In this document: piece by piece, positions 1,717 through 50,100 of the stretch
How positions within the stretch are numbered: position 1 is the first letter of the stretch
How the letters are laid out: every line of letters begins with the position of its first letter
Made by a program: the position numbers and the translations under genes
The notes under the pieces: generated by a model
Told to the model about the DNA's origin: nothing
The model's database searches: none
Seen by the model: only the letters and a program-made list of their open reading frames with translations
Source of the DNA: Centroscyllium fabricii
Lineage: Eukaryota
Reading direction: 5' to 3'
Assembly (NCBI GenBank): GCA_051313645.2
Contig: JBNRSN020000029.1
Span: 21,328,001-21,392,000 of the forward strand
Length of the DNA: 64,000 nt

Positions 1717-1936
1717 TCTGGGGAACCCCTGTTGTATATATATGCCTGTGTGTATACATGCCCGGGCATGCTTTAAGCTGACTCTGCCCCTAGCCTACCT
1801 GATAAAGGCCCGAGCTCTGGGAGCCTGGCCCAGTTCAAGGAGTTGCCGGTGAGTCTAAGGATGTCCAGGGTTCTTAGTGAATAAAAGCCTCAGTTGTATT
1901 CTCAACCTCACCGCGAGTATAATTGATCGTGCATCA
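1717..1936 (+). repeat. 3' LTR of the Gypsy fragment
   Basis: Starts directly after the PPT (TCTGGGG, a decayed TG start), AATAAA at 1880-1885, ends ...TTGATCGTGCATCA, resembling the ...TTGACGATACGTCA ends of related LTRs. Confidence 0.8.
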
Positions 1937-28756: not shown

Positions 28757-30652
28757 CTGGTTGATTATGTCCAAGGGATTAGTTGGGACTGGTTGCTAAG
28801 AGCGAAGGGGTTTGTTGGGACTGATTGATAAGGCCAAAGGGACTTTTTGGGACTGGTTGCTAAGGTCAAAGGGACTTGTTGGGACCAGTGATAAGGGCCT
28901 TGGCACCAGTGCTAATGGCCATGGGACCGGTTGCTAAGGACCCTGGAACCAGGCGCTAAGGGCCGTGGGACAGGGTGGTAATGGCCCTGGGACCGGGTGC
29001 TATGGGACATGGGATCAGGTGCTATGGGACATGGGACCAAGTGATAAGCACCATGGGACTGGATGCTGAGGGCCATGGGACTGGGTGCTAAGTGCCATGG
29101 GACCAGGTGCTAAGGGTCATGGGTCTGGGTGCTAAGGGCCATGGGACAGGTTGCTGAGGGCCGTGGGACCGGTTGTTAAGGGCCATGGGACCGGTTGCTA
29201 AGGACTCAGGGAGCCGTTGCTATGGGCCCTGGGACTGGTTGCTAAGGGCCGTTGGACCAGATGCTAATGACTATGAGACCAGTTGCTAAGGGCCACGGGA
29301 CTGGGTGCTAAGGGCCATGGGACTGCTTGCGAAAAGCCGATGAGTCAGTAGCTGAGGACCATGTGATAGGGTGCGAATGGCCTTGGGCTGGTTGCTTAAG
29401 ATCCTGGGACAGGGTGCGAAGGCCCTTGGACCGGTTGCTAAGGGCCGTGGGGCTGGTTGCTATGGGTCAGGGACTGGTTGCTAAGGGCCAAGAGACCGGT
29501 TGCTAAGGGCCAAGGAAACAGTCGCTAAGTGCCATGGAAACGGTTGCTAATGACCAAGGGACCAGCGGCTCAGGGCCACGGGTGCTAGGGGTGATGTGAT
29601 CGGGTGCTAAGGGCAAAGTGACCAGGTGCTAAGGGCCAAGGGACCAGTGCTAAGGTCATTAGGACCTGACGCTAGGGCCATGGGACCAGTTGCTAAAGGC
29701 CGAGGAACTGGTTGCTGAGGGCCGTGGACCATGTGCTATGTTCGGAGGGACCGGTTGCTAAGCGCCGTGGGACAGGGTGCTAAGGGCCTTGGAGCTGTGC
29801 AAAGGGCCATGGGACCGGTTGCTAATGACCCTGGGACCAGATGCTAATGGCCGTGGGACTGGGTGCTAAGGGCCCTGGGACAGGGTGCTGAGGCACATGG
29901 GACCAGTGCTAAGGGTCTTGGGGTTGGTTGCTAAGGTCAGTGGGACCGGGTGCTAAGGGGCGAGGGACCGGGTGCTAAGGGCCGAGGGACAGGTTGCTAA
30001 GGGCGGAGGGACCGGTTGCTAATTGCCGAGAGACCGGTTGCTAAGGGCCGTGGGACGGGATGCTAAGGACTTGGTCTGGTTGCTGAGGATCCTGGGACCG
30101 GGTGCTCAGGGATGTGTGACTGGTGCAAAGGGGCAGGGGGGCAGATGGTAAGGGCCATGGGACCAGTTCCTAAGGGCCGAGGTACTGGTTTCTAAGGGCC
30201 AAGGGACTGGTTGCTAATTGCCGTGGGACTGGGTGCTAAGGGCCTTGGGACCGGGTGCTAAGGGCCATGGGACTGGTTGCTAAAAGCCGAAGGACTGGTT
30301 GGTAAGGGCCATGGGACAGGGTGCGAAGGGCCTTGGACCGGTTGCTTAAGATCCTCGGACAGGGTGCGAAGTGCCTTCGATCGGTTGTTAAGGTCCGTGG
30401 AGCTGGTTGCTAAGGGCAATAGGGTTGGTTGCAAAGGGCCATGGGACCAGATGCTAAAGCTCTTGGACTGGTTGCTGAACATCCTAGGAGCGGCTGCTAA
30501 AGGCCATGGGACCGGTGGAAAAGTGCCATGGGACTGGACGCTAAGGGCCACTGGACCAGGTGCTAAGGGCCATGTGACCAGTTGCTACAGGCCGAGGGAC
30601 TGGGTGCTAAGTGCCATTGAACTAGTTGCTATGGGTCAGGTGACTTGATGCT

Positions 30653-30928
30653 TTTGGTAACCCATATTGTATATACGATTACCTCTGTAATATTGTCGCC
30701 AACATTGGCTTTGTATTATACACCGCTTTTCAACACTGTCGTGGAGCCAGGTCAGCCACACCTCTAACTCCTCCCCCAGGTGAGGCCCTTTATAGGTGAG
30801 GACTGACCAGGCTCCCTCATTCTGTTCTGATATTCGTTCGGAGGGTAGCTCCAAAGTAAGTTATTTAAAGCCCATAGTTAAGGTCACTACTCGTTTAGTC
30901 TTTTATTAAGACAATTGACGATACGTCA
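30653..30928 (+). repeat. 5' LTR, type A, 276 bp
   Basis: Direct repeat of 36296-36571 with about 11 substitutions by eye; ends GATACGTCA. Confidence 0.93.
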
Positions 30929-30955
30929 ATTTTATTAACTTAAAAATTTGTTGAA

Positions 30956-31849
30956 ATGGAGAGCGGTGCGGTAAAGCCAGAGAAGCTGGACACCAACCCA
31001 CAGGACCCATTCGCCGCCACCACGTTCGAACACTGGTTCGGTCTCCTGGAGGCCTATATGGACGCAGCCAAGGCTACAACAGACGGGAACAAATTGCAGG
31101 TTCTCCGGTCTAGGATCTCCTGCCGAGTATTCTCCCTCATCCGAGACGCCAAAACCTATCCAGGGGCAGTGGAAAAGCTGAGGAAATGCTATGAGCGCCC
31201 GGTCCATTCGGTCTACGCCAGACATGTGCTCGCGACCAGACCACAACTACCGGGTGAGACTAACGAGCAATTTGAGCAAGCGCTCCAGGCCCTGGTACGG
31301 GTCTGTGGCTGCCAAGCCCGGACAGCAGAAGAGGAGGCGAATCTCCTCATCTGAGATGCGTATGTAACAGGCCTGAGGTGTGTGGAAGCCCGCCAACGGC
31401 TGCTCGAAAAAGACTCTTTGACTCTTGAGGAGGCGATCTCCATAGCTAACTCCGTAGAAGGTGCACGCAATAAGCTGCAGGCGTACAGCGGCACAAACCC
31501 GCCGGCCTACGACATGTGGGCCGCGCCACAATGGGCCCAGGCCTGGGCAGCACCACAACGGGTCGAGACCCCCACGATGGCTGCGACAGCCGCAAAGGAC
31601 AAATGGTGCTATTTCTGCGGCCAGGGACTGCACCCACGAGCGAGATGCCCAGCGAGGACCGCGATCTGTGAGAGGTGCTCCAAAAAGGGACACTATGCGA
31701 AGGCCTGCAGATCAGCACCAGCAGCGCCCAACTCTGCGTACAACAGCGCAGCGTGTGAAAGCTCATTCAGACCTCAGGTAAGCTGCAATAGCAGCGCGAT
31801 CCAGCGACGGTCCGGGGTAGAAGGAAAGCGCCCCCATCTCCCACCCTGA
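30956..31849 (+). pseudogene. gag: Gypsy gag with an in-frame stop at 31352-31354
   Basis: ORFs 30956-31354 and 31382-31849 are in frame; two CX2CX4HX4C knuckles (CYFCGQGLHPRARC, CERCSKKGHYAKAC). Confidence 0.88.
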
Positions 31850-34800
31850 TGCGGCAAAGGCCGGCTGCACCCACGGCATCCCAAGCTCAGCCACGGCCGG
31901 CCAAGTGCGACCCCCCAACGCCAGCGGCAGACCCAGCGCGGCCCGCTGCGTGCGAATCACGGGCACCACCAACCCAACCACCGCGGCTCGCTGCGTGCGA
32001 ACCATGGGCATCGCCAACCCAGTCACCGCGGCCCGCTGCGTGCGAACCACAGGCGCCGCCAGCGTGCTCACAGCGGTCAGCCGCGTGCGAACCACGGGCG
32101 CCGCCATCTTGTCTCCAGCGGCCCACCATGTGTGACCCCCCGGCACCGCCATCTTGTCTCCAGCGGCCCGCCATGTGCGACCCCTCGGTGCCGCCATTTT
32201 GTCCCCAGTGCCCCACCATATGTGAGCAAGGGGCACCGCCATTTTGTGTACAGCCCCAACCAGCAGGGGGCCCCCACACACAAAGGCACACTTCGGCCTC
32301 AGCCATACCCAAAGTGGACCAGGCTAGGCCACACAACCTTTCTAACTCAATCATGCCGATTAAAATTAACGGCTATATTACCAATTGTCTGTTCGACACT
32401 GGAAGCACGGAGAGTTTTATACACTCCGATACAGCGCAGCGCTATGGACTGCAGATCCTGCCCACGAACTACCAAGTCTCCCTTGCTTCACAGTCCCACA
32501 CCGCGGACGTCACCGGCTACTGCTCCGTCACGCTCACAGTCAAGGGTTGTGTGTACCGTAATTTTAAATTGTACACCCTCAAGCAGTTGTGTGCCTCAGC
32601 CTTACTAGGTCTGGATTTCCAGTGCCACCTCAAGAGCGTGACAATGGAGTTCGGCCTGACCTTGCCCCCCCTCACCGTCAGTAGCCGGGACAGTCCCTTC
32701 CCAAAGCTGAGCCCGGCCTGCGGCCTCTCCACCCTGAAAATCGACCCCGCCTCACTGTTCGCCAACCTCGACCCTAAGTGCAAACCTATTGCTACAAAGA
32801 GTCGGCGGTACAGCGTGGGGGATCGCACGTTTATCAGGTCGGAGGTCGGGCGTATGCTGAAGGAGGGGATAATTGAAGCCAGCACCAGCCCCTGGCGGGC
32901 CCAGGTAGTAGTGGTGAAGTCTGGCGAGAAACAGCGGCTGGTTATCGATTACAGCCAGACTATCAACCGCTACACCGGGCTCGACGCCTACCCCCTCCCC
33001 CGCATCTCAGACATGGTCAATCAGATCGCCCAATATAAGGTGTTCTCCACGATCGACCTTAAGTCGGCGTATCACCAACTCCCGATCCGGAAAGCCGACC
33101 GCCCGTACACCGCCTTCGAGGCGAACGGTCGGCTCTACCACTTCCTCCAGGTCCCCTTCGGCGTGACCAACGGAGTGTCAGTGTTCCAATGGGAGATGGA
33201 CTGCATGGTTGACCAGAACGATTTGCGGGCCACTTTCCCTTACCTGGACAACGTGACCATCTGCGGCCACGACCAGCAGGACCACGATGCCAACCTGGCC
33301 AAATTCCTTGATACGGCGGATAAGCAGGACCTTACGTATAACAAGGACAAATGTGTCTTTAATACAGACCGGCTCGCTATCCTCGGATACGTGGTGGAGA
33401 ACGGGGTCCTCGGCCCCGACCCACAGCGTATGTGCCCCCTACAAGAACTGCCCCTACCTCACAACCCCAAAGCCTTGAGGAGATGCCTAGGATTTTTCTC
33501 CTACTACGCACAATGGGTCCCACAGTTCGCAGACAAGGCTATCCCACTCCTCAAGGCTGCCGTCTTCCCCCTCTCAGTAGAAGCCCAAACGGCATTCGCC
33601 CGGATAAAGGAAGACATCATCAAAGCGACCATGCTCGCTGTTGATGAATCCATTCCCTTCCAGGTGGAGAGCGACGCTTCGGACTTTGCCCTTGCTGCCA
33701 CCCTGAATCAGGCAGGCAGGCCCGTAGCGTTTTTCTCCCGCACCCTACAGGGACCCGAAACTCGCCACTCTGCAGTGGAAAAGGAGGACCAGGCCATCGT
33801 GGAGGCCGTGCGCTACTGGCGTCATTAACTGGCCGGTATGCGTTTACCCTTCACACCGACCAACGGTCGGTGGCGTTTATGTTTAATAATAAACAGAAGG
33901 GTAAGATCAAGAATGATAAGATCCTGCGGTGGCGGATCGAACTCTTGACTTACGAGTACGACATTCTTTACCGCCCAGGTAAACTCAATGAACCCCCGGA
34001 CGCACTGTCCAGGAGAACGTGCGCCAGTGCCCAGCTAGACCGGCTGAAGGACCTCCACGACCGCCTTTGCCACCCGGGTGTCACCAGACTCGCCCACTTC
34101 GTCAAGTCCCGTAGCCTCCCCTACTCCATCATGGAGATCAAGGCTATGACCCGAGAGTGCCCTGTCTGCGCCGAGTGCAAACCCCACTTTTTCCGGCCAG
34201 ACACGGCGCACCTCATTAAGGCCACCCGCCCCTTTGAACATCTCAGCGTGGACTTCAAAGGCCCCCTCCCGTCCACCGACCGCAACTCATACTTCCTCAC
34301 GGTAGTGGATGAGTTCTCCCGCTTCCCCTTCGCCTTCCCCTGCCCAGACATGACGAGCGCAACGGTGATCAAACACTTCACCACGCTGTTCGCCATCTTC
34401 GGTCTCTCCAGCTACATCCATAGCGACCGGGGTCATCATTCATGAGCGATGAACTGCGCCAGTTTCTGCTCCAGAGAGGGGTTGCCACGAGCAGAACGAC
34501 CAGTTATAACCCCCGGGGGAACGGCCAGGTAGAAAGGGAGAATGGGATCATTTGGAAGGCGGTCACCCTGGCTCTCAAGTCCAGAGGCCTTCCAGTGTCC
34601 CATTGGCAGGCAGTCCTCCCAGACGCGCTGCACTCTATACGCTCTCTATTATGTACTGCTACTAACGCCACCCCGCACGATCTGATTTTCTCTTTCAACA
34701 GGAAATTGACTTCGGGGACAGCTCTTCCACCATGGCTGACGACTCCGGGGCCGGTTTTGCTTAGAAGGCATGTCCGGAGCCACAAGACAGATCCACTGGT

Positions 34801-35176
34801 GGACAAGGTACAGCTCCTACACGCGTACCCCCACTATGCATTCGTGCAGTTCCCGGACGGGCGTGAGGACACCGTGACCATCAGGGACCTGGCTCCCGCA
34901 GGCAGCACCACCGCAGAGCCCCCGGCCGGCCAGCAGGCCGATCAACCACCAGACACACGATGGCCCCTGCAGTGGCCTGCACTGAACCACGACCCGGACG
35001 GCGGGGACCAGCCGAGTCCATCGCTACCTGAAGCCACAGCACCGGCAGATGCGGGCGATTCGAACCAGGAGGCACCACCACCAACACCGGAGCACCGGCA
35101 GTCCTCCAGGCAGACACGACCGCCGGACAGACTTATCATGAACTGTTCGACCCATTCACCCCCCCCCCGGACTTAA
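31849..35176 (+). pseudogene. pol: Gypsy pol (PR, RT, RNase H, IN), disrupted by a stop at 33826-33828 and frameshifts near 33840 and 34432
   Basis: LFDTGS (DTG at 32395-32403), IDLKSAYHQ, VPFGVTN, YLDN at 33241-33252, SDASDFA, HDRLCHPG..CPVC, VDFKG, IHSDRG, GQVERE. Confidence 0.93.
31870..32255 (+). repeat. 45-bp (15-codon) coding minisatellite between gag and protease, ~8 units
   Basis: CAGCGGCCC recurs at 32116 and 32161; peptide repeats such as QRPAMCDPSVPPFCP and PRPAACEPQAPP. Confidence 0.85.
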
Positions 35177-35196
35177 AATTTTCAAGAAGGGGTGAA

Positions 35197-35485
35197 TGTG
35201 GTAACCCTTTTGTGTTAGCATTACCACTGTATTATTATGGCTAATAATGGGCTGTGCAGATGTTAGGCACAGCCCTGTATACTGTGACACTGTTGGGAGC
35301 CAGGTCAGCCACACCTCCAACTCCTCCCCCAGGTGAGGCCCCGTTATAGGTGAGATCTGACCGAGGCTCCTCATTCCTGTACAGAAGTTCGTTCCGGAGG
35401 GTAGCTCCGTTCTTAGCAATTAAAAGCCTTTAGTTTTGGTAACTACTCGTCGACTCTTTTAATCGAAGGTATTGACGATACGTCA
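35197..35485 (+). repeat. Internal LTR, type B, 289 bp, from a related subfamily
   Basis: Follows a PPT and has TGTGGTAACCC...GATACGTCA termini like type A, but a clearly diverged U3/R. Confidence 0.9.
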
Positions 35486-36290
35486 CATTCATAGCGACCG
35501 GGGATCATCATTCATGAGCGATGAACTGCGTCAGTTTCTGCTCCAGAAAGGGGTTGCCACGAGCAGAACGACCAGTTATAACCCCCGGGGGAACGGCCAG
35601 GTAGAAAGGGAGAATGGGATCATCTGGAAGGCGGTCACCCTGGCTCTGAAGTCCAGAGGCCTTCCAGTGGCCCATTGGCAGGCAGTCCTCCCAGACGCGC
35701 TGCATTCAATACGCTCTCTCCTGTGCACAGCCAGTAACGCCACCCCTCATGACTTGATTTTTTCCGTCCCCAGGAAGTCGACTTCGGGGACAGCTCTTCC
35801 TCCATGGTTCACGACACCGGGGCCGGTCTTCCTTAGGAGGCACATCCGTGGCCACAAGACCGACCTGCTGGTGGACAAGGTGCAGCTCCTGCACGCGAAT
35901 CCGCAATATGCCTTCGTGCAGTTCCCGGACGGGCGCGAGGACACCGTCTCCATCAGGGACCTGGCGCCCGCCGGGAGCACCACAGCAGAGCCACTGGTCG
36001 GACTGCAGCCCGCCCAGCCACAGTATCTAGAACACCCCCTGCATCTACAGTGGCCTCCGAGGTGTCCAGAGCCCCAGCCGTGGCCAGCCCAAGACCACCA
36101 TTCCGATGGCTCAGACCAATTGCGGCCACCAGCATCCGAAATCACGGCACCAGAGCCGCTGTCACCACCACCGGACTCGAGCAGTACGCAACACGGCGAA
36201 CCTTTACCGGAGCCCCGGCGGTCCTCCAGGCTGACACGACCGCCGGACAAGCTCATAATGAACTGCTCTGTCCATTCACCCCAAGAAGGG
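35486..36290 (+). pseudogene. pol: Second copy of the integrase C-terminal half
   Basis: Resumes at IHSDRGSSFMSDELRQ immediately after LTR B. It is a diverged paralog of 34416-35176 with a different Pro-rich tail. Confidence 0.9.
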
Positions 36291-36295
36291 GTGAA

Positions 36296-36571
36296 TGTGG
36301 TAACCCATATTGTATATACGATTACCACTGTAATATTGTCGCCAACATTGGCTTTGTATGATACACTGCTTTGCAACACTGTCGTGGAGCCAGGTCAGCC
36401 ACACCTCTAACTCCTCCCCCAGATGAGGCCCTTTATAGGTGAGGACTGACCAGGCTCCCTCATTCTGTTCTGATGTTCGTTCAGAGGGTAGCTCCAAAGT
36501 AAGTTAATAAAAGCCTATAGTTAAGGTCACTACTCGTTTAGTCTTTTATTAAGACAATTGACGATACGTCA
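36296..36571 (+). repeat. 3' LTR, type A, 276 bp
   Basis: TG...CA termini, upstream PPT, AATAAA at 36506-36511, followed by TSD ATGCT. Confidence 0.95.
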
Positions 36572-38057
36572 ATGCTAAATGCCAGTTGCTAAATCCCATG
36601 CAACAGTTTGCTAAGGTCCATGGGGTCGGTTTCTAAGGACCCTGGGACCGTGTGCTATGGGCCGATGGACGGGTTGGCAAGCGACGTGAGACAGGGTGCT
36701 TAGGGCCTTGGAACGGTGCAAAGGGCCATAGGACCAGATGCTAAGGGCCTTGGGACCATGTGCTATGGGCCGAGGGTCCGGTTGTTAATGTCCATGGGAC
36801 CGGTTGCTAAGGGCCTTGGGACTGTGTGCTTTGGGTTGAGGGACCGGTTGCTAACGGCCGTGGGACTGGGTGTTTACGGACCTTGGACAGGGTGCTGATG
36901 GGCATGGGACTGGTGCTAAAGGCCGTTTGATCGGTTGCTAAGGGCCAAGGGATTTGTTGGAACCGTTTGCTAAGGGCCTTGGGACTGTGTGCTATGGGTC
37001 GAGGGACCGGTTGCTAACGGCCGTGGGACTGGGTGCTTAGGGACCTTGGACAGGGTGCTGATGGGCATGGGACTGGTGTTAAAGGCCGTTTGATCGGTTG
37101 CTAAGGGCCAAGGGATTTGTTGGGAGCTGTTGATAAGTTCCAAGGGATAAGTTGGGACTGGTTGCAAAGAGCGAAGTGGCTTGTTGGGACTGGGTGCTAA
37201 GTCCATGGGACCGGTTGCTAAGCAACCTGGGGCCAGGTGCTAAGGGCCCTGGATCAGGGTGCTAAGGGCCAAGGGACTTGTTGGGACTGGTTGATAAGGT
37301 CCAAGGGACTTGTAGTTAAGTTCCAAGGGATTATTTGGGACTGGTTGCTATGGGTGTAGGGGATTGTTGGGACTGGTTGCTTAGTTGCAAGGGACTTGTT
37401 GGGACTTTGTGCTAAGGGCCTTGGGACCAGTGCTAAGGGCCTTGGGACCGCTGCTAAGGGCCATGCGACCAGTTGCTAAGGACCCTGGGACCGGGTGCTA
37501 AAGGCCCTTGGACACGGTACTAAGGGCAAAGAGACCGGGTGCTAACTGACGTGGGACAGTGTGTTATGGGGCGTGGGACACGTTGCTAAGGGCTGTGGGA
37601 CCGGTTGATAAGGGCCGTTGGACTGGGTGCTAAGGGTCTTGGGACAGGGTGCTAACTGCCATGAGACCGGTGCTAAGGCCATTGGGACCTGACGCTAGGG
37701 CCATGGGACCAGTTGCTAAAGGCCGAGGAACTGGTTGCTGAGGGCCGTGGGACCATGTGCTATGGTCGGAGGGACCAGTTGCTAAGCGCCATGGGACTGT
37801 GTGCTAAGGGCCTTGGAGCTTTGCAAAGGGCCATGGGACCGGTTGCTAATGACCCTGGGACCAGGTGCTAACGGCCATGGGACTGTGTGCTAAGGGCCCT
37901 GGGACAGGGTGCTGAGGCACATGGGACCGGTGCTAAGGGTCTTGGGGTTGGTTGCTAAGGTCAGTGGGACCGGGTGCTAAGGGGTGAGGGACCGGTTGCT
38001 AAGGGCCGAGGGACAGGTTGCTAAGGGCGGAGGGAGCGGTTGCTAATTACCGAGAGA

Positions 38058-38080
38058 CTTAGCACCGGTCCCATGTGCCT
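38058..38080 (-). repeat. 23-bp inverted copy of 37915-37937
   Basis: CTTAGCACCGGTCCCATGTGCCT is the exact reverse complement of AGGCACATGGGACCGGTGCTAAG. Confidence 0.9.
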
Positions 38081-38862
38081 GGGTGCTAAGGGCCATGGGA
38101 CTGGTTGCTAAAAGCCGAAGGTCCGGTTGCTAAGAGCCATGGGAGAGAGTGCGAAGTGCTTAAGATGCTGGGTACAGGGTGCCAATTGCCTAAGGGCCGT
38201 TGAGCTGGATGCTATGAGCCAGAGGGCTGGTTGCTAAGGGCCATGGGACCCGATGCTAAGGCTCTTGGACTGGTTGCTGAAGATCCTAGGACCGGGTGCT
38301 AAAGGCCGTGGGCCGGTGGAAAAGTGCCATGGGACCAGATGCTATGGGCCACTGGACCGGGTGCTAAGGGCCATGGGACCAGTGGCTAAGGGCAGAGGGA
38401 CTGGGTGCTAAGGGCAATGGAATGAGTTGCTATGTGTCAGGTGACTGGTTGCTAAAGGCCGGTTGCTAAATCCCATGCGACAGTTTGAGTAGGCCCATGG
38501 GGCCGGTTTCTAAGGACCCTGGGACCGTGTGCTATGTGTTGATGGATGGGTTGCTCGGGGCAATGGGACCAGGTGCAATGGGCCCTGTGACCGGGTGCTA
38601 AGGGCCATGGGGCCTGGTACAAAGGGCCTTGGGACCTGGTGCAAAGGGCCTTGGGACCCGGTGAACTGGGCCATGGGACCGGGTGCTAAGGGGCCTTGGA
38701 CCAGGTGCTTTGGGCCATGGGACAGGGTGCTAAAGGTATTGGGACCTAGTGCTGAGAGCGATGGGTCCGGTTGCTGAGGGCGATGAAAACACTTGCTAAG
38801 TGCCAGGTGACCGGTTGCTAAGGACCAGTTACTGAGTCCCATGTGACCGGTTGCTAAGGGCT

Positions 38863-41800
38863 TTGGGGCCAGTTGCTAATGGCTGAGAACTGGTTGCTAA
38901 GGGCCAAGGGACCAGTTGCCATGGGGAAGGAGACCGGTTGCTAAGGGCCAAGAAAATAGTTGCTAAGGGCCCTGTAAATGGTTGCTAAGGGCCAAGGGAC
39001 CGACGGCTAAGGGCCATGGCCCATTGCTAAGAGCGAAGTGACTGGTTGCTAAGAGTCATAGGGGCAGTTGCTTAGGTTCATGGGAGCGGGAGCAAAGGGC
39101 CTTGGGAACGGGTGCTGGGGCAATGGGACCGGATGCTAGGGGCAATGGGACCGGGTGCTAAAGGTCAAGTGACCAGGTGCTACGGGCCATGGGACAGGGT
39201 GCTCAGGGCCTTGGACCGGTAGCTAAAGATCCTGGGACTGGGTGCTAAGGGCCGTGGGACTGGTGCAAATGTCCATGAGAATGGTTGCTAAGGACCCTGG
39301 GACTGGTTGCTAAGTACACTGGGACCTGTTGCTTAGTGCCGTGGGACCGGATGCTAAGGGCCATGAGACCAGTTGCTAAGGGCCATGGGACAGGGTGCTA
39401 AATGCATTGGGACTGGGTGCTGAGAGCCGTGGGGCCGATTGCTAAGGACGATGAAAACAGTTGCTCAGGGCCAGGTGACTGGTTGCTAAGTGTCGGTTAC
39501 GAAGTGCCATGCGATCGGTTGCTGAGGGCCGCGTGGCCGGGTGCTTAGGGCCGTGGGCCTGGTTGCTAAGGGCCGAGGACTGGTTGCTAATGGCCAAGGG
39601 ACCGGTTGCCATGGGCAAGGAGACGGGTTGCTAAGGGCCAAGAAAATGGTTGCTAAGGGCCATGGAAACCGTTGTTAAGGGCAAAGTGTCCGATGGCTAA
39701 GGGCCACGGCCCATTGCTTAGAGTGAAGCGTGTGGTTGCTAAGGCCCATGGGACAGGTTGCAAAGGGCCTTGGGACCATGTGCTAGGGGCGATGTAACAT
39801 GGAGCTAAGAGCCAAGTGACCAGGTGCTAACGGCCATGGAACCGGAGGTAAGGGCCATAGGACCTGGCTCTAAGTGCCATGGGAAATGTTGCTGAGGGAC
39901 GAGGGAATGGATGCTAAGCGGCAAGGCACCAGTTGCCAAGGGTAAAGAGACCGGTTGCTAACAGCCAAGAAAACTGTTGCTAAGGGCCATGGAATTGGTT
40001 GCAAAGGGCCTTGGGACTGAGTGCTAGGGGCCATGGGAATGGGTGCGAGGGGCCAAGGTACCGGGTGCTAAGGGTCCTGGGACTGGGTGCTATGGGCAAT
40101 GGTACCGGGTGATATGGGACATGGGACCGGGTGCTTAGGGCCATGGGACCGGGTGCGACGTGCCATGGTACCAGGTGCTAAGGTCCATGGGACCGTGAGC
40201 TCAGTGCCATTGGACTTGGTGCTAAGGGCCATGGGACTGGTTGCTAAGGGCCAAAGCACCTTTTGCTAAGGGCCACCGGACCGGGTCCTAAGGGCTATGG
40301 GACCGGTTGCTAAGGTCCCTGGGACAGGTTGCTAAGGACCCTGGGACTGGTTGCTAGGTGCCGTGGGACTGGTTGTTAAAGGCCATTAGACCAGTTGCTA
40401 AAGGTCATGGGACGGGTGCTAAAGGCATTGAGATCGGGTGCTGAGAGCAGTGGGGCCGGTTGCTAAGGGCGATGGAAACAGCAACTAAGGGCCAGGTGAG
40501 CAGTTGGTAAGGGCCGTGGGGCCGGATTCTACAGTCCGTGGGGCCGGTTGCTAAGGGCCGTGGGGCTGGTTGCTAAGTGCCATGGAAACGGTTGCTAAGG
40601 GCCAAGGGACCGGCGGCTGAGGGCCACAGCCCATTGCTAATTTCGAAGGGACTGGTTGCAAAGTGTCATAGGGGCAGTTGCTAAGGTCCATGGGACCGGG
40701 TGTAAAGGGCCTTGGGGCCGGGTGCTAGGAGCGATGTGACACGGTGCTAAGGGCTAAGTAACCAGGTGCTAATGGCCATGGGACCGGTGATAAGGGCCAT
40801 GGAACCAGTTGCTGAGGGTAGTGGGACCGGGTGCTAAGGCCCAAGGGACCGGTTGCAAAGGGCCAAGGGATTTGTTGAGACTGGTTGATAAGGTCCAAGG
40901 GATTAGGTGGGACTGGTTGCTATGAGCGAAGGGGCTTGTTGGGACTGGTTGCTAAGGTCAAAGGGTCTTGTTGGGACCAGTGCTAAGGGCCTTGGGACCA
41001 GTGCTACGGGCCATGGGACTGGGTGCTAAGGGCCCTGGAGCAGAGTGCTGAGGGGTGTGTGACCGGTGTGACCGGTGCTAAGGGGCTTTGAATTGGTTGC
41101 AGAGGGCAGTGAGACCAGGTGCTAAGGCTTGAGGGACCGGTTGCAGAGAGCCAAGGGATTTATTGGGACTGGTTGATAATGCCCAAGGGATTAGTTGGGA
41201 CTGGTTGCTCAGAGCGAAGGGGCTTGTTGGCACTGGGTGACAAGGTCAAATGGACTTTTTGGGACTGGTTGCTAAGGTCAAAGAGACTTGTTGGGACCGA
41301 TGCTAAGGGCCTTGGGACCAGTGCTAAGGGCCATGGGACAGATTGCTAAGGATTCTGGGACTGGTTGCTAAGGGCCCAGGAACAGGGTGCTATGGGCCGT
41401 GGGAGTGGGTGCTAAGGTCCGTGGGACATGGAGCTAAGGGTCATGTGACCAGGGCCGAGGGACCGGGTGCTAAGAGCCATGTTACCGGGTGCTATGGGAC
41501 ATGGGACCGGGGGATTTGAGACATGGGACTATGTGCTACGGGTCATGGGACCGGATGCTAAGTGCCATGGGACTGGATGCTACTCCTGCTCCTATCTTCT
41601 ATGATTCTATGATTCTATGCTAAGCGCCATGGCACCAGGTGGTAAGGGCCATGGGACTGGGTGCTAAGGGCCATGGGACTGGTTGCTAAGGGCCGGGGGA
41701 CTGGTTGCTAAATATCTTGGGACAGGGTGCTAAGTGCCGTGGGACCGGTTGCTAAGGACCCTGGGACCGGTTGCTAAGCACCCTGGGACCATTTGCTAAG

Positions 41801-44150
41801 TGCCGTGGGACCGGATGCTAAGGGCGATGAGACCAGTTGCTAAGGTTCTTGGGACAGGGTGCTAAAGGCATTGTGACCGGGTGTGGAGAGCCTTGGGACC
41901 GGTTGCTAAGGGAGATTGGAAACAATTGCTGAGTACTAGGTGACCGGTTACTAAGTGCCGGTTACTAAGTACCATGCGACTGGTTGCTAAGGGCCGGTTA
42001 CTAAGTACCATGCGACCGGTTGCTAAGGGCCATGGGGCCGGTTGCTGAGAGCCGTGGCGCTGGTTGCTAATGGCCAGGGACTGGTTGCTAAGGGCCAAGA
42101 GACCGGTTGACATGGGCAAGGGGACCAGTACTAACGGCCAAGAAAACAGTTGCTAAGTGACATGGAAATGTTTGCTAAGGACCAAGGGACCGGCAGCTCA
42201 GGGGCACGGCCCATTGCTAAGAGCGAAGGGACTGGTTCCTAAGCGTCATGGGGCATTTGCAAAGGTGCATGTGACCTGGCACAAAGGACCTTGGGACCAG
42301 GAGCTAGGGGCGTTGTGACCGGGTGCAAAGGGCCAAGTGACCAGGTGCCTAAGGGCCATGGGGCCGGTGTTAACGCCATGGGACCTGACGCTAGGGCCAT
42401 GGGACCAGTTGCTAAAGGTCGAGGGACCGGTTGCTAAGCGCTGTGGGACAGGGTGCTAAGGGTCTTGGAGCGGTGCAAAGGGCCATGGGACTGGTTGCTG
42501 ATGACCCTGAGACCAAGTGCTAACGGCCCTGGGACTGGGTGCTAATGACCCTGGGACAGGGTGCTGAGGCACATGGGACCGGTGCTAAGGGCCTTGGGAT
42601 CGGTTGCTAAGGGCAATGGGGCCGGGTGCTAAGGGGCGACGGACCGGGTGCTATGGGCCGAGGGACAGTTTGCTGTGGGCCGAGGGACTGGTTGCTAAGG
42701 ACCGAATGACCAGTCGCTAATTGCTGAGGGACCGGTTGCTAAGGGCCATGGGGCAGGCTGCTAAGGCCTTGGCCAAGTTGCAGAGGATCCTGGGACTGGG
42801 TGCTAATGGCCGTGGGACTGGTGCAAAGGGCCATGGGAGCAGATGCTAAGGGCCAAGGGACAGTTTGCTAAGGGCTGAGGGACCGGTTGCTAAGTGCCGT
42901 GGGACTGGATGCTAAAGGCCTTGGGACCGGGTGCTAAGGGCAATGGGACTGGGTGCTAAGGGCCATGGGACAGGTTGCTGAGGGCCGTGGGTCCGGTTGT
43001 TAAGGGCCATGGGACCGGTTGCTAAGGACTCTGGGAGCCGTTGCTATGGGCCCTGGGACTGGTTGCTAAGGGCCGTTGGACCAGATGCTAATCGCCATGA
43101 GACCAGTTGCTAAGGGCCACGGGACTGGGTGCTAAGGGCCATGGGACTGCTTGCGAAAAGACAATGAGCCAGTAGCTAAGGACCATGTGATAGGGTGCGA
43201 ATGGCCTTGGGCTGGTTGCTTAAGATCCTGGGACAGGGTGCGAAGGCCCTTGGACCGGTTGCTAAGTGCCGTGGAGCTGGTTGCTAAGGGTCAGGGACTG
43301 GTTGCTGAGGGCCAAGAGACCGGTTGCTAAGGGCCAAGAAAACAGTCGCTAAGTGCCATGGAAACGGTTGCTAATGACCAAGGGACCGGCGGCTCAGGGC
43401 CACGGGTGCTAGGGGTGATGTGATCGGTTGCTAAGGGCAAAGTGACCAGGTGCTAAGGGCCAAGGGACCGGTGCTAAGGTAATTAGGACCTGACGCTAGG
43501 GCCATGGGACCAGTTGCTAAAGGCCGAGGAACTGGTTGCTGAGGGCCGTGGGACCATGTGCTATGTTCGGAGGGACCGATTGCTAAGTGCCATGGGACAG
43601 GGTGCTAAGGGCCTTGGAGCTGTGCAAATGGCCATGGGACCGGTTGCTAATGACCCTGGGACCAGATGCTAACGGCTGTGGGACTGGGTGCTAAGGGCCC
43701 TGGGACAGGGTGCTGAGGCTCATGGACCAGTGCTAAGGGTCTTGGGGTTGGTTGCTAAGGTCAGTGGGACCGGGTGCTAAGGGCTTTGGGACCGTGTGCT
43801 ATGGGCTGAGGGACCGGTTGCTAACGGCCGTTGGACTGGGTGCTTACGGACCTTGGACAGGGTGCTGATGGGCATGGGACTGGTGCTAAAGGCCGTTTGA
43901 TTGGTTGCTATGGGGCAAGGGATTTGTTGGGACTGGTTGATAAGTTCCAAGGGGTAAGTTGGGACTGCTTGCTAAGAGCGAAGTGGCTTGTTGGGACGGG
44001 GTGCTAAGGGCCTTGGGACCGGTTGCTAATGACCCTGGGGCCAGGTGCTAAGGGCCCTGGAACAGACTGCTAAGCGTCAAGGGACTTGTTGGGACTGGTT
44101 GATAAGGTCCAAGGGACTTGTAGTTACGGTCCAAGGGGTTATTTGGGACT
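38863..44150 (+). repeat. HOR copy 4, ~5.3 kb
   Basis: Paralogous artefact ORFs at 41119 and 41862 match those in copies 1-3; the upstream block 38510-38842 matches 4968-5300. Confidence 0.78.
41583..41616 (+). mobile_element. Extremely 5'-truncated CR1 (or CR1-tailed SINE) 3' end, 34 bp
   Basis: CTCCTGCTCCTATCTTCTATG plus ATTCTATG repeats, between ATGCTA direct repeats at 41577-41582 and 41617-41622; empty sites at ~16919 and ~23836. Confidence 0.85.
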
Positions 44151-47100
44151 GGTTGCTATGAGCGAAGGGGCTTGTTGGGACTGGTTGCTGAGTTCCAAGG
44201 GACTTGTTGGGACTGGGTGCTAAGGGCCTTGGGTGCAGTGCTAAGGCCCTTGGGACCACTGCTAAGGGCCATGGGACCAGTTGCTAAGCACCCTGGGACC
44301 GGGTGCTGAAGGCCCTCGGAGAGGGTGCTAAGGTCAAAGAGACCGGGTGCTAAGTGCTGTGGGACAGTGTACTTTGGGGCGTGGGACACGTTGCTAAGGG
44401 CTGTGGGACCGGTTGATAAGTGCCGTGGGACCGAGTGGTAAGAAAAGTGGGACCGTGTTGTAAGAAAATTGGGTCCAGATGCTAAGTGCCATGGAACATG
44501 GTGCTACGGGTCACGGGACCGGTTACTAAGGAACCTTGGACTGGGTGCTAACGGCCGTGGGACTAGGTGCTAAGGGCCCTGGTACCAGTTGCTAAGGGCC
44601 GTTGGACCGGGTGATATGGGCCCTGGGACTGGGAGCAAAGAGCCGTGGGACCTGATGCTAAGGGCCATGGGATCGGTTGCTAAGGGTTATGGAATCGGGC
44701 GCTAAGGGCCAGATAACCGGGTGCTAAGGGCTGAGAGATTGGTTGCTAAGGGCCATGGAACCAGTTGCTAAGTGCCAGGTGACCGGTTGCTAAATGCCGG
44801 TTGCTAAGAACCAAGCACCAGGTTGCTAAAGGCCCTGTTTCAGTTTCTAAGGACCCTGGGACCGTGTGCTATGTGCCAATAGACTTGTTGCTAAGGACAC
44901 TGCCACCGGGTGCTAACGGCCGTGGGACTGGGTGCTACGTGCCTTGGGACAGGGTGCTGAAGGGCGTGGGACTGGTGCTAAGGGCCTTGGGATCAGTTGC
45001 TAAGGGCAGTGGGACCGGGTGCTAATGGCCCAGTGTCCAAGGGATTAGTTTGGACTGGTTGTGAAGAGTGAAGGGGCTTGTTGGGACTGGTTGTTAAGTT
45101 CAAAGAGAAATTTTGGGACTTGTTGCTAAGTCAAAGGGCCTCGTTGCGGCCGGTGCTAAGGGCTTTGGGACAGTGCTAAGGGCCATGGGACCAGTTGCTA
45201 AGGACCTTGGGACCGGGTGCTAAGGGCCCTAGAACAGGGTGCTAATGGCCGTGGGACCAGGTGCTAAGGGCTGAGACACCGGTATCTAAGGAGCGAGGGA
45301 CTAGTTGCTAAGTGCCGATGGACCGGTTGCTATGCACCATAGGACAGGATGCTAAGGCTCTTGGACTGGTGGCTGAGGATTCTGGGTCTGGGTGCTAAGG
45401 GACCGTGGGTCCAGTGGAGAAGTGCCATGGGACCGGAGGCTAAGGTCCATCGGACTTGTTGCTAAGGGCCATTGGACCAGTTGCTAAGGGCCAGGTGACC
45501 GGTTGCTAAAGGCCGGTTGCTAAGTCCCATGCGACAGGTTGCTTAGGGCCATGGGGCCGGTTTCTAAGGACCCTGAGACCGTATGCTATGGGCCGATGCA
45601 CCGGTTGATAAGGGCCGTGGGACAGGGTATTAAGCTCCTTGGAATGGTGCAAAGGGCCATGGGACCAGTTGCTAAGGGCCTTTGGACCGTGTGCTGTGGG
45701 CCGAGTGTCTGGTTGCTCAGGTCCATGGGACTGGTTACTAAGGGCCTTGGGACCGTGTGCTATGTGCCGAGGGACCAGTTGCTAACGGCTGTGGGACTGG
45801 GTGCTAAGGACCCTGGGACAGGGTGATGAGGTGTGTGGGACTGGTGCTAAGGGCCATCGGATTGTTTGCTATGGGCAGCGGGACTGGGTGCTAAGGGCCG
45901 AAGAACTGGTTGCAAAGGGCCAAGGGATTTGTTGGGACTCGTTGATAAGTTCCAAGGGATTAGTTGGGACTTGTTGCTGAGTGCGAAGGGGCTTGTTGGG
46001 TCTGGCTGCTAAGGGCCATGGGAGCGAGAGCTAAGGGCCCTGAAACAGGGTGCTAAGGGCCAAGGGACTGGTAGGTAAGGTCCAAGTAATTATTTGGGAC
46101 TGGTTGCTATGAGCGAATGGACTTGGGACTGGTTGCTGAGGTCCAAGGGACTTGTTGGTACTGGGTGCTAAGTGCCTTGGGACCGGTTACGAAGGACCTT
46201 GGGATCGGTTCTGAGGGCCATGGGGCCGGTTGTTAAGGACCATGGGATCGGGTGCTAAAGGCCCTCGGACTGGGTGCTAAGGGCAAAGAGACCGGGTGCT
46301 GAGGGCCGTAGGACAGTGTGCTAAGGGGCGTGGGACACGTTGCTAAGAGTTGTGTAACCGGTTGCTAAGGGCCGTGGAACCGGTTGGTAACAAAAGTGGG
46401 TCCGGGTGGTAAGAAAAATGGGTCCAGATGCTACGTGCCGTGGGACACAGTGCTAAGCGTCGCGGGACCGTTTACTAAGGACCCTTGGATTGGGTGCTAA
46501 CAGCTGTGGGACTGGGTGCTAAGGGCCCTGGGACAGGTGGCTAAGTGCTGTGGGACCAGGTGATATGGGCCATGGGACCAGGTGGAAAGAGCCATGGGAC
46601 CGGTTGCTAAGGGCAATGGGATCGGTTGCTAAGTGTCATGGTGGTCGGGTGCTAAGGGCCAGAGCACCGGGTGTTAAGGGCTGCGGAACTGGCTGCTGAG
46701 GGCCATGGAACCAGTTCCTAAGGACCAGGTGACCAGTTGATAAAGGCCGTTTGCTAAGACCCATATGATAGGTTGCTAATGGCCATGGAGCCGGTTTCTA
46801 TTGACACTGGGACCGTGTGCTATGGGCCGATGGACCAGTTGCTAAGGGCCGTGCGACCAGGTGCTATGGGCCTTGGAACGGTGCAAAGTGACATGGGACC
46901 AGTTGCTAAGGGCCTTCGGACTGTGTGCTATGGGCCGAGGGTCCGGTTGCTAAGGTCCGTGGGGCTGGTTGCTAAGGGACCTGGGACGCATTGCTGAGGG
47001 GTGTGGGACTGGTGCTTAGGGCTGTGCTCTGGGTGCTAAGGGTTGAGGGACCAGTTGCTAAGGGTCAAGGGACTTGCTGGGACTGCTTGATAAGGTCCAA

Positions 47101-50100
47101 GGGACTTGAAGATAAATTCCAAGGGAACGGTTGGGACTGGTTGCTACTAGCAAAGGGGCTTGTTGGGACTGGTTGCGAGTTCCAACGGACTTGATGGGAC
47201 TGTGCGCTAAGGGCCTTGGGTACGGTACTAATGGCCATGGGACCGGTTGCTAAGGACCCTGGGAAAAGGTGCCAAAGTCTCTCCGACAGGGTGCTGAGGG
47301 CCAAGTGACCGGGTGCTAAGGGCTGTGGGACAGTGTGCTAAGGGGCATGGGACACGTTGCTAAAGGTTGTGGGACCGGTTGGTAAGGGCCGCGGGACCGG
47401 GTGGTGTGAAATATGGCTCCAGATGCTAAGGGCCATGGGACACAGTGCTAAGTGACCTGGTACCAGGTGCTAAGCGCCCTGGGACTGGGTGCTAAGGGCT
47501 CTGATACCAGGTGCTAAGCACCCTGGGACTGGGTGCTAAGGGCCCTGGGACTGGGTGCTAAGGGCCCTGCTAGTGGGTGCTAAGCACCCTGCAAATGGGT
47601 GCTAAGGGCCAAGGGACTTGCTGTGACTGGTTGATAAGATCCAATAAACTTGTAGATAAGGTCCAAGGGATTAATTGGGACTGGTTGCTACGAGCGAAGG
47701 AGCTTGTTGGGACTGGTTGCTGAGATCCAATAGACTTGTTGGGAGTGGATGCTAAGGGCTTTGGAACCACTGCTAAGGGCCATGGGACCCGTTGCTAAGG
47801 ACCCTTGGACCTGGTGCTAAGGGAGAGGGATCAGTTGCTAAGGGCCTTAGGACAGGGTGCTATGGGCCGAGGGACTGGGTGCGAAGTGCCCTGGGACCGG
47901 GTGCTAAGGGCCCTCAGACAGGGTGCTAAGGGCCAAGAGACCGGGTGCTAAAGGCCGTGGTACAGTGTGCTAAGGGGCATGGGACCCGTTGCTAAGGGCT
48001 GTGGGACCGGTTGATATGTGCCATTTGACTGGTTGCTAAAGCCGTGGTACCGGGTTCTAAGGGCCGTGGGATGGATGCTGAGGGCCACGGGACCAGGTGC
48101 TATGGGCCATGGGACTGGGAGCAAAGAGCCGAGGGACTGGTTGCCAAGTGCCGTGGGACCTGATGCTAAGGGCCGATGGACCAGTTACTAAGCGCCATGG
48201 GACAAGGTGATAAGGGTTGAGAGACCGATTACTAAGGGCCATGGGACAGGGTGCTGAGGGCCATGGGACCGGGTGCTAAGGGCTGAGAGACCGGGAGCTA
48301 AGGGCCACGGGACCGGTTGCTAAAGTCCCTTGCACCGGGTGCTAACGGCCGTGGGACCAGGAGCAAAGGGCCGAGTGATCGGTTGCTAAGGGCCATGAAA
48401 CCAGTTGCTAAGGGCCATGGGACTGGGTGCTAAAGGCCGTGGGACCGTGTGCTGAGGGCCGTGGGAGCGGTTGCCAAGGTCCATGGGATGGTATGCTAAT
48501 GGCCATGGGATCGGGCGCTAAGAGACCTGGCACCATGTGCTAAAGTCCGAGGGACAGGTTGCTAAGTGCCATGGAAGCAGTTGATAACGGCCAGGTGACG
48601 GGTTGCTAAAGGCGGGTTGCTAACCCCCTTGCGACAGGTTGCTAAGAGTCATGGGGCTGGTTGCTAAGGGCCATGGAAATGGTTGCTAAGGGCCATGGAA
48701 ATGGTTGCTAAGGACCAAGGGAACAGGTGCTAAGGGCTGAGGGGTCGAGTGCTAAGGACCAGGGGAGCAGTTTCTAAGGCCCAAGGAAATGGTTGCTTAG
48801 GGCCAAGGGAGCAGTAGCTCAGGGCCACAGCCAATAGCTAAGAGTGAAGGGACTGGTTGGTAACAGCCAAGGGGCCATTTGCTAAAGGCATTGGGGCTGG
48901 GTGTTAAGGACCATGGGACCGGGTGCTAAGGGCATGAGACCAACAGCAAAGGGCAGAGGGACTGGTTGCTAAGGGCTGATGGACAGGTTGCTAAGGGCCG
49001 AGGGACTGAGTGAGAAGGGCCGAAGGACCGGGCCATTGGACAGGGTGATATGGGCCGAGGGAATGGGTGCAAGGGGCCATGAGAGTGGGTGATAAGGGCC
49101 ATGCAACCGGATGCTATGAGCCAAGTGACTTGTTGTTCAGGGCCGAGTGACTAGTTGTTAAAGGCCGAGCGACCGTTTGCTAAAGGCTTTGGGAATGGGT
49201 GCCAAGGGCTGAGGGATTGGTTACTTAGGACCGAGGGAACGGCTGCTAAGGACCGAGGAACTGGTTGCTAAGGGCCAAGAGTTTGGTTGCTATTGGCTGA
49301 GGGACCGAGTGCTAAGTGCCGTGGGGCCGGTGATTAAGGACGAGGGGACCGGTTGCTGAGGGCCGGTTGCTGCGGGCTGTGGGACTGGTTGCTAAGGCCT
49401 GTGGAACCGGTTTCAAAGGCCATGGGGGGATTGTTTGCAAATTTCCGAGAGACCAGGTGCTAAGGGTCTAGGGACCGGGTGCTAAGGCCCTAGGGACCGG
49501 GTGCTAAGGGCGAGGGGACTAGTTGCTAAGGGCTATGAAACCAGTTTCGAAGGGTACGTGGTGCCCATTGCTGATGGCCAGGGGACCGGTTGCTAAGTGC
49601 CGGTTGCTCAGGGTCATGGGACCGGTTGCTAAGGGCTGAGGGACTGAGTGTGAAGGGCCGAAGGACCGGGTTCTAAGGGCCATTGGACAGGGTGCTAAGG
49701 GCTGAGGAACTGGTTGCTAAGGGACGAGTACTGGTTGCTAAGGGCCGAGGAACCAGTTCCTAAGGGTCATGCGATTGGGTCCTAAGGACTGAGGGACTGG
49801 TAGCTAAGGACCAAGAGACATGGTGCAAAGGCCCAAGGGAATGAATGCTGAGTGCCGAGGGGCCGAGTGCTAAGGACCAGGGGAGCAGTTTCTAAGGGCC
49901 AAGGAAATGGTTGCTAAGTGTCGTTGGACCGGTTGCTGAGGGTCAAGGGTCCAGTAGCTCAGTGTCGGAGACCTGTTGCTAAGAGGCAGGGGACTGGTTG
50001 CTAAGGGTCAGGGGACCGGTTGCTAAGGGTCAGGGGACTGGGTGCCAAGGCCGAGAGACCGGTAGCTAAGGGCCGAGGGTCTGGTTGTTTAGTGTTGTGG

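Follow-up and report, generated by a model that had tools for sequence, protein, structure and literature searches.

Results

A decayed Ty3/gypsy element in satellite DNA

The window, by which we mean the whole 64,000-nt stretch of DNA analysed here, holds a decayed Ty3/gypsy copy that sits in a satellite with a 22-bp unit, along with LTRs of two relatives: a diverged family (family B) and a related subfamily (subfamily C) whose LTR lies inside the element. The parts of these elements are as follows:

1717..1936, + strand: 3' LTR of the diverged family B, with its segment at 1872-1886 and a terminal hairpin at 1921-1936
30648..30652, + strand: 5' target-site duplication, ATGCT (the same 5 bases at 36572-36576)
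30653..30928, + strand: 5' LTR, 276 nt, TT..CA, with 11 differences from the 3' LTR (TG..CA)
30956..35176, + strand: gag-PR-RT-RNase H-integrase frame, interrupted by a stop at 31352-31354 and, further on, by frameshifts and more stops; the RT motif is YLDN
35197..35485, + strand: LTR of the nested related subfamily C, with its own polypurine tract (PPT) ahead and a different segment at 35413-35425
35486..36282, + strand: remaining integrase region of the outer element, where identity to the sibling L320 resumes at ~96%
36283..36295, + strand: PPT and spacer ahead of the 3' LTR
36296..36571, + strand: 3' LTR, 276 nt, whose segment at 36500-36512 matches the primer site at 13/13

The gag-PR-RT-RNase H-integrase order, TG..CA LTRs, PPT and short target-site duplication (5 bp) are those of Ty3/gypsy elements, and the best match of the RT among solved structures is Ty3 (E 1.7e-38). 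An uninterrupted sibling, L320, encodes a single 1437-aa ORF and contains an RNase H domain. The first-pass annotation had seen no evident chromodomain in this lineage, and the uninterrupted copy bears this out: none was detected in L320, P0015 or P0030, whereas the control element L311 scores for PF00385 at E 1e-12. Furthermore, the domain check of the uninterrupted sibling found no Tf2-type SH3, and the precomputed domain annotation of 120 homologs, a good many of which are incomplete, likewise includes no chromodomain.

Several additional observations concern the body of the element and its surroundings. The region 34400-35490 is chimeric, with the 3' part and LTR of subfamily C standing within the integrase gene, followed by CATTC and then by the outer integrase region; this is a nested subfamily C element that lacks its 5' part, probably through recombination. 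The RT motif YLDN lies at 33241-33252, and the same position among 120 homologs reads YxDN in 88 and xxDD in 30. A proline-rich tandem repeat at 31850-32330 extends the gag-protease linker, and L320 reaches 1437 aa as against ~1200 aa in many homologs. Outside the element, the window is mostly GC-skewed satellite at 2250-30650 and 36570-50000, with the 22-bp unit arranged in higher-order repeats. Short interspersed repeats at 1940-1990, 14545, 20812, 26036, 50619 and 54599 are presumably of a kind found in cartilaginous fishes.

The primer-site position pairs with the LTR of the element itself

Three features at the 5' LTR's end and just beyond it bear on how the element might be primed:

30857..30869, + strand: predicted self-primer segment, 5' LTR copy, carrying the poly(A) hexamer and two copy-private substitutions
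30870..30872, + strand: GCC immediately past the predicted primer 3' end
30930..30942, + strand: predicted primer-binding site (PBS), LTR +2 to +14, without TGG, complementary to the LTR segment

The first-pass annotation had proposed that this gypsy family has no tRNA PBS and that its primer-site position is instead complementary to its own LTR, and every position it gave checks out; the third LTR, that of subfamily C, went unmentioned in it. No TGG follows the 5' LTR, the gag ATG stands only 27 nt downstream (30956), and 36500-36512 has its exact reverse complement at 30930-30942; the 5' LTR copy pairs at 11/13, with both mismatches private to this copy. The same junction characterizes the family at large. 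All of the 30 closest copies share it without TGG, with 28 pairing at 13/13, and among 30 copies chosen by gag protein alone 23 match at 13/13 and five at 11-12 (two were unparsed). Genome-wide, where this LTR end is followed by this gag start, the next bases are TTT in 65,822 places and TGG in 3, so that the intact copies do not carry the TGG-type PBS expected had this copy simply suffered a deletion. A looser junction pattern has 151,973 matches in the 7.2-Gb genome, as against 0 when the pattern is reversed.

Comparison of the site with host tRNAs gave best matches of 4-6 nt among the 23 distinct Cys and Lys sequences available (63 genes came from an Rfam search; running aragorn on 50 loci gave these 23 sequences, which represent two isotypes). 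As predicted from sequence, the only pairing partner next to the LTR end, where minus-strand synthesis would start, is the element's own segment.

Covariation between the LTR segment and the primer site

The suggestion that the 12-13 nt after the 5' LTR should covary with the R segment was examined in 90 host-genome copies, and covariation is found. They were drawn from the first 100 matches that the pattern search listed for contig C1 (30 taken as loci and 60 picked from the other 70), and the selection pattern fixes four of the 13 pairs together with one side of a fifth; the GCC that follows the segment is likewise pattern-fixed in the host genome. Positions +2 to +14 pair with an LTR segment ending AATAAAA or ATTAAAA, perfectly in 65 copies and with at least 12 pairs in 86, and the perfect matches comprise 20 distinct 13-mers. 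At the free positions, pairing in the 90 copies far exceeds that with shuffled partners (in brackets): 89 (48.7) at +7, 84 (24.5) at +9, 87 (45.5) at +10, 83 (43.7) at +13 and 87 (71.2) at +14. All four pair types occur at +9, and the edge of the pairing is sharp, dropping from 87/90 at +14 to 31/90 at +15.

Parsimony on a gag-only tree counts 44 changes from one Watson-Crick pair to another over the five positions, 29 of them of transversion type, and a U3 tree counts 41 paired-to-paired changes, although recombination between subfamilies may inflate the number of independent double changes. The gag tree also has 21 changes to unpaired states, only 3 of which fall on inner branches, and no lasting G-U states. 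Copying of the primer into the PBS fits this pattern better than stepwise structural compensation does. Correlations of distances among U3, R, U5 and gag neither located the strand-transfer point nor separated the models.

The complementarity is retained where the R sequence differs, including in both relatives present in the window. For family B, the PBS was predicted from the LTR and then found: among 30 LTR-selected loci, 14 have gag next, and 13 of these match at 12-13 of 13. The PBS predicted from the subfamily C LTR was found at L121, L130, L139, L145 and L210, 5' junctions that came from a junction-pattern search rather than from LTR queries; as a DNA query the subfamily C LTR returned nothing, or only 3' and solo LTRs, a bias from the query tail. 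A 13-mer with 20 forms that track the LTR cannot be one tRNA fragment, which answers the possibility that the site matches such a fragment beyond the two isotypes directly compared. In 13 of 20 imperfect copies both LTRs lay in the fetched DNA, the 3' LTR being perfect in 4 and the PBS alone differing in 9; such mismatches would fit decay after insertion and do not give a direction (LTR to PBS). In one distant relative, L243, the segment ends GAAGA, which suggests that the primer end is templated rather than a poly(A) tail.

Relatives across animals form a separate clade

The nearest named RT homologs come from sharks and rays, followed by cnidarians, a sea cucumber, a mussel, Trichinella, a psyllid and a tunicate; database records with homologs span tunicates, molluscs, cnidarians, echinoderms, nematodes and arthropods, and no relatives were found among viral contigs. 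A metagenome scan yielded 80 loci with RTs 41-61% identical, the gag start being locatable in 41. Forty were scored, and 32 show a perfect leader/LTR match of at least 9 nt (at most 2/100 shuffles), with 29 reaching 11-17 nt (0/100 dinucleotide shuffles). With one representative per family and starts corrected, 24 of 28 families show the pairing, the four without a match being L219, L230, L273 and L275. In 22 of these 24 the pairing starts at CA+2 without having been selected for it, as it also does in the host copies chosen by gag, whereas in the 90-copy set this start is set by the pattern; RCC follows the segment in 19, and the segment ends AATAAA or ATTAAA in 13.

All of these relatives fall into one 50-row clade (SH-aLRT 100) of a 76-row RT-RNase H tree, apart from three chromovirus rows, an element with a Trp-type PBS (L329) and another gypsy group; this is a quick tree with long branches and a midpoint root. 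Some clade members (L265:1680-1710, L275:370-400, L278 and L230:1-30) have a TGG-like sequence right after CA, for which no tRNA was identified, and L275 keeps a partial complement to its own LTR further on. It is possible that these members returned to tRNA priming, or that their ATG directly follows the LTR. A separate observation is a pyrimidine tract with AG, resembling a splice acceptor, about 10-50 nt upstream of the segment in the metagenome relatives L233, L244, L251, L262, L264 and L283; these motifs were seen by eye, and a crude pattern applied with no control flagged some of them.

Predicted position of the segment within the transcript

Upstream of the segment, the 5' LTR contains two promoter-like motifs:

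30789..30796, + strand: TATA-like box
30817..30822, + strand: Inr-like motif, with the inferred start at 30819

In a set of 92 copies (the 90 above plus one each of families A and B), a TATA-like motif lies 60-75 nt upstream of the segment in 81 and an Inr-like A 36-46 nt upstream in 87, and the distance between TATA and Inr is 28-30 nt in 73 of the 78 copies that have both. The Inr is ~39 nt upstream of the segment, and both motifs are conserved across very different LTRs; in the interval 22-36 nt upstream of the segment, 0/92 copies show a TATA-like motif. Sushi-type elements of the same genome served as a control (8 examined, from two or three close families). Their 10-11-nt self-primer stands at TATA+29/30 in 7/7 parsed, with the poly(A) signal ~350 nt from the primer. 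In young sushi-type chromoviruses (L311-L319), primer and PBS also vary in step between families.

Judging from the promoter motifs, the segment likely lies ~39-51 bases into the transcript. The first-pass annotation had likewise placed it ~40 nt inside, in a geometry different from that of Tf1. For the host's families, the promoter-motif spacing and the sushi-type control make this the better reading, with a start that is itself predicted; the reading is confined to these families, and in the distant, invertebrate-type metagenome elements a fixed TATA/Inr spacing is not evident.

Leader hairpins and overlap with the poly(A) signal

Three further features surround the segment and the primer site:

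30840..30852, + strand: small 4-bp hairpin just upstream of the segment
30901..30909, + strand: second, shorter complement of the segment in U5, in long-spacer subfamilies only
30914..30930, + strand: U5-terminal hairpin with a 7-bp conserved core, adjoining the primer site

The first-pass annotation had described the U5-terminal hairpin as a perfect 8-bp structure at 30913-30931, and had seen a covarying stem in the diverged relative LTR. The hairpin exists and is conserved, with its inner 7 pairs kept in 80-91/92 copies, although the outer pair is kept in only 24/92, and double changes in the stem are few (1 on the gag tree, 5 on the U3 tree). In 13/24 distant families folding predicts no structure there, and the hairpin is not evident in the invertebrate-type relatives. 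The hairpin is weaker evidence than had been suggested. Position +2 is contested between one pair of this hairpin and the opening pair of the primer duplex; in the predicted fold the hairpin takes +1 and the duplex begins at +2, so that the two helices would abut. The leader fold exceeds its shuffles only modestly, with z -1.6 in family A, whose duplex is AU-rich, -0.85 in this decayed copy and -3.0 in family B.

The small hairpin upstream of the segment would lend weak extra support at most: the window -24..-1 folds at -5.1 vs -2.8 shuffled, the window -96..-73 also beats shuffles, and other families have different stems. A helix joining the gag AUG region to bases that precede the segment was considered and rejected, at -8.0 no better than shuffled partners (-7.9). 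The second complement averages 7.4 nt as against 5.8 nt shuffled (57 copies). In subfamilies with a longer U5 this complement (8-9 nt) sits in the loop of a small hairpin, and it tracks the AATAAA/ATTAAA switch in 50/51 scorable copies, which probably reflect few independent events.

A canonical hexamer at the segment end is present in 91/92 host-genome copies (AATAAA in 61, ATTAAA in 30). The proposed overlap of the segment with the poly(A) signal thus holds for the host genome and fails to generalize, being seen in only 13/24 distant families; in L213 and L221, AATAAA lies 26-28 nt beyond the segment.

Discussion

A putative internal self-primer

Self-priming in one form or another, taking all variants together, is very probable on the evidence of the sequences. 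The particular form that we favour, with moderate confidence, is an internal primer of ~50 nt whose final 13 bases form the duplex and which is released by a cut ahead of GCC. From the patterns above we infer a start site, a cut, an enzyme, poly(A) masking and priming in the following order. Transcription would begin at the Inr, and the segment would then pair with the PBS across a 47-61-nt loop. This duplex would hide the 5' poly(A) signal and leave the 3' copy free, since no PBS stands behind the 3' LTR. A cut before GCC, probably made by the element's own RNase H as in Tf1, would produce the ~50-nt primer, from which RT would copy U5 and the remaining R before jumping to the 3' R. Plus-strand synthesis would finally copy the primer back into the PBS. 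By this last step, changes in the LTR segment would be written into the PBS, which would explain its free, transversion-rich, lock-step drift. [quoted passage not shown] Because the segment holds the hexamer in nearly all host copies, the duplex would mask the 5' poly(A) signal as well; such masking cannot be the whole story, as 11/24 distant families are without the overlap.

Alternatives to the internal primer

Another route to self-priming, which we consider possible and clearly less probable, would use an RNA 3' end that has been shortened as far as the duplex; this end could belong to the genomic RNA or to a short transcript that terminates at the 5' poly(A) signal. It predicts an identical register and covariation, and the canonical hexamer at the segment end in 91/92 copies would direct 3'-end processing to just downstream. 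Short LTR-only transcripts have also been reported for another LTR element (PMC4558846). However, the hexamer is confined to 13/24 distant families, with AATAAA displaced beyond the segment in L213 and L221, and RCC is conserved after the segment (19/24), as a cut site might be. A bolder version, about equally tentative, pictures an animal-wide clade in which self-priming evolved apart from Tf1/sushi and is tied to mRNA 3'-end formation. In the 3' LTR the 13-base word would act as the poly(A) signal, in the 5' LTR the PBS would cover it, and it would become the primer once a 3'-processed transcript has been trimmed, so that host polyadenylation and decay enzymes would build the primer, rather than a tRNA or the element's RNase H.

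Rather less probable still is the ordinary Tf1 geometry, in which the packaged transcript would begin at the segment and its first 13 bases would be the primer. The sharp upstream edge of the pairing would suit this geometry, as would the precedent of Tf1, which itself uses its first 11 bases (PMC7175516). Yet the stretch 22-36 nt ahead of the segment contains no TATA-like motif in any of the 92 copies, the conserved TATA and Inr belong to a start 39 nt further up, the sushi-type control in the same genome does look Tf1-like, and the paired length varies from 9 to 17 in relatives.

We regard it as quite unlikely that the duplex is regulatory only, acting in 5' poly(A) masking or in packaging, with priming by something else. 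The overlap with AATAAA/ATTAAA in the host genome and the second complement of the signal in the U5 of long-spacer subfamilies could both be read in this way. However, no other primer site follows the LTR, in 22/24 families, spanning phyla, no more than one base separates the end of the helix from that of the LTR, 11/24 have no canonical signal to mask, and the changes are rich in transversions with no lasting G-U states. Chance pairing of an AT-rich site, a deletion in this copy and a tRNA-fragment primer are excluded for practical purposes, even with the direct tRNA comparison resting on Cys and Lys genes only, by the shuffled-partner controls, the 29/40 loci of at least 11 nt at 0/100 dinucleotide shuffles, the 20 distinct perfect 13-mers and the 65,822 vs 3 junctions.

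Implications of probable self-priming in this clade

'Self-primed Gypsy' entries from fish and frog in Repbase Reports may overlap this clade. Self-priming as such is already known from Tf1/sushi and predicted for plant TAR elements; the novelty here is likely a variant in a separate clade with a predicted internal primer. We found no report of self-priming in this clade in open-access text. The parts of the literature available to us treat self-priming within Ty3/gypsy as a mark of the Tf1/sushi chromoviruses; the present finding suggests that it arose a second time, separately, in a clade with members across the animals. To this, the window adds depth of covariation within one genome, as well as promoter geometry set against an internal control.

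If the primer is indeed internal, the primers that an LTR element can produce include ones with a long 5' tail left unpaired, and a single helix may take care of priming as well as of silencing the 5' poly(A) signal. Control through 3' tRNA fragments would not reach such elements, and annotation software that demands a tRNA PBS would overlook or mis-score them. With thousands of natural primer/PBS variants, and with sushi-type elements of this genome as a control, the mechanism can be put to a direct test.

Comparison with known systems

The closest parallels are Tf1, Tf2, Tj1 and the Tf1/sushi chromoviruses, which share with this element the lack of a tRNA site, a PBS complementary to their own LTR, a helix that begins at +2 after CA (the register also seen in this genome's sushi-type elements), a U5 hairpin beside the PBS and the Ty3/gypsy domain order. 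The element differs from them in having no chromodomain, an RT only ~31% identical on a separate branch with a motif that is mostly YxDN, a primer of 13 rather than 11 nt that is predicted to be internal (TATA+~68 rather than +29), and a loop of 47-61 rather than ~410 nt; its segment overlaps the poly(A) signal, whereas the two are ~350 nt apart in the sushi control. Of the three duplexes in the Tf1 'pretzel' (PMC10085805), the central duplex and the U5 hairpin are present here as predictions, and the AUG-region candidate for the third is no better than shuffles. By this analysis the element would work in a Tf1-like manner and yet is not a Tf1/sushi member, given its lack of a chromodomain and its separate RT branch.

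Self-priming has also been predicted for the plant TAR lineage (Houba and Osr-1, of Ty1/copia) and for Tcn1 (PMC6317226, PMC10085805), on the basis of an LTR match of at least 10 nt found 0-5 nt after the 5' LTR (PMC6317226); covariation, the position of the primer and overlap with the poly(A) signal do not appear in that source's passages on TAR and Tcn1. For Skipper, a different unconventional primer is possible (PMC5006619). TAR and Tcn1 have predicted self-priming in common with the present element, and TAR shows that the trait arose outside the chromoviruses, but they belong to another superfamily or clade and to another kingdom.

Within Ty3/gypsy, the clade may presumably be that of Cigr-1 from Ciona, an assignment by description only, in which short LTRs, one ORF of ~1200 aa and a Mag/SURL-like gag are the features that fit. 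The Cigr-1 clade has been described from Ciona, molluscs and annelids, and the accessible text of the papers whose trees contain Cigr has 0 matches for PBS or primer binding (PMC6238403, PMC8556966). By comparison, the CsRN1 and Saci2/lennie clades have TGG-type PBSs for tRNA-Trp or tRNA-Leu and a 4-bp target-site duplication (PMC2582038, PMC12471100, PMC4558846), whereas the present element has no TGG and a 5-bp duplication, and L329 with its Trp-type PBS falls outside the clade. An affinity with Saci-2/PwRn1 was considered and dropped in view of the tRNA sites and 4-bp duplications there.

Retroviruses mask their 5' poly(A) signal, as in the polyA hairpin of HIV-1. The situation here would be similar in that the signal lies in R and is to be ignored in its 5' copy; it would differ in the masking partner, which would be the PBS, a sequence present only behind the 5' LTR.
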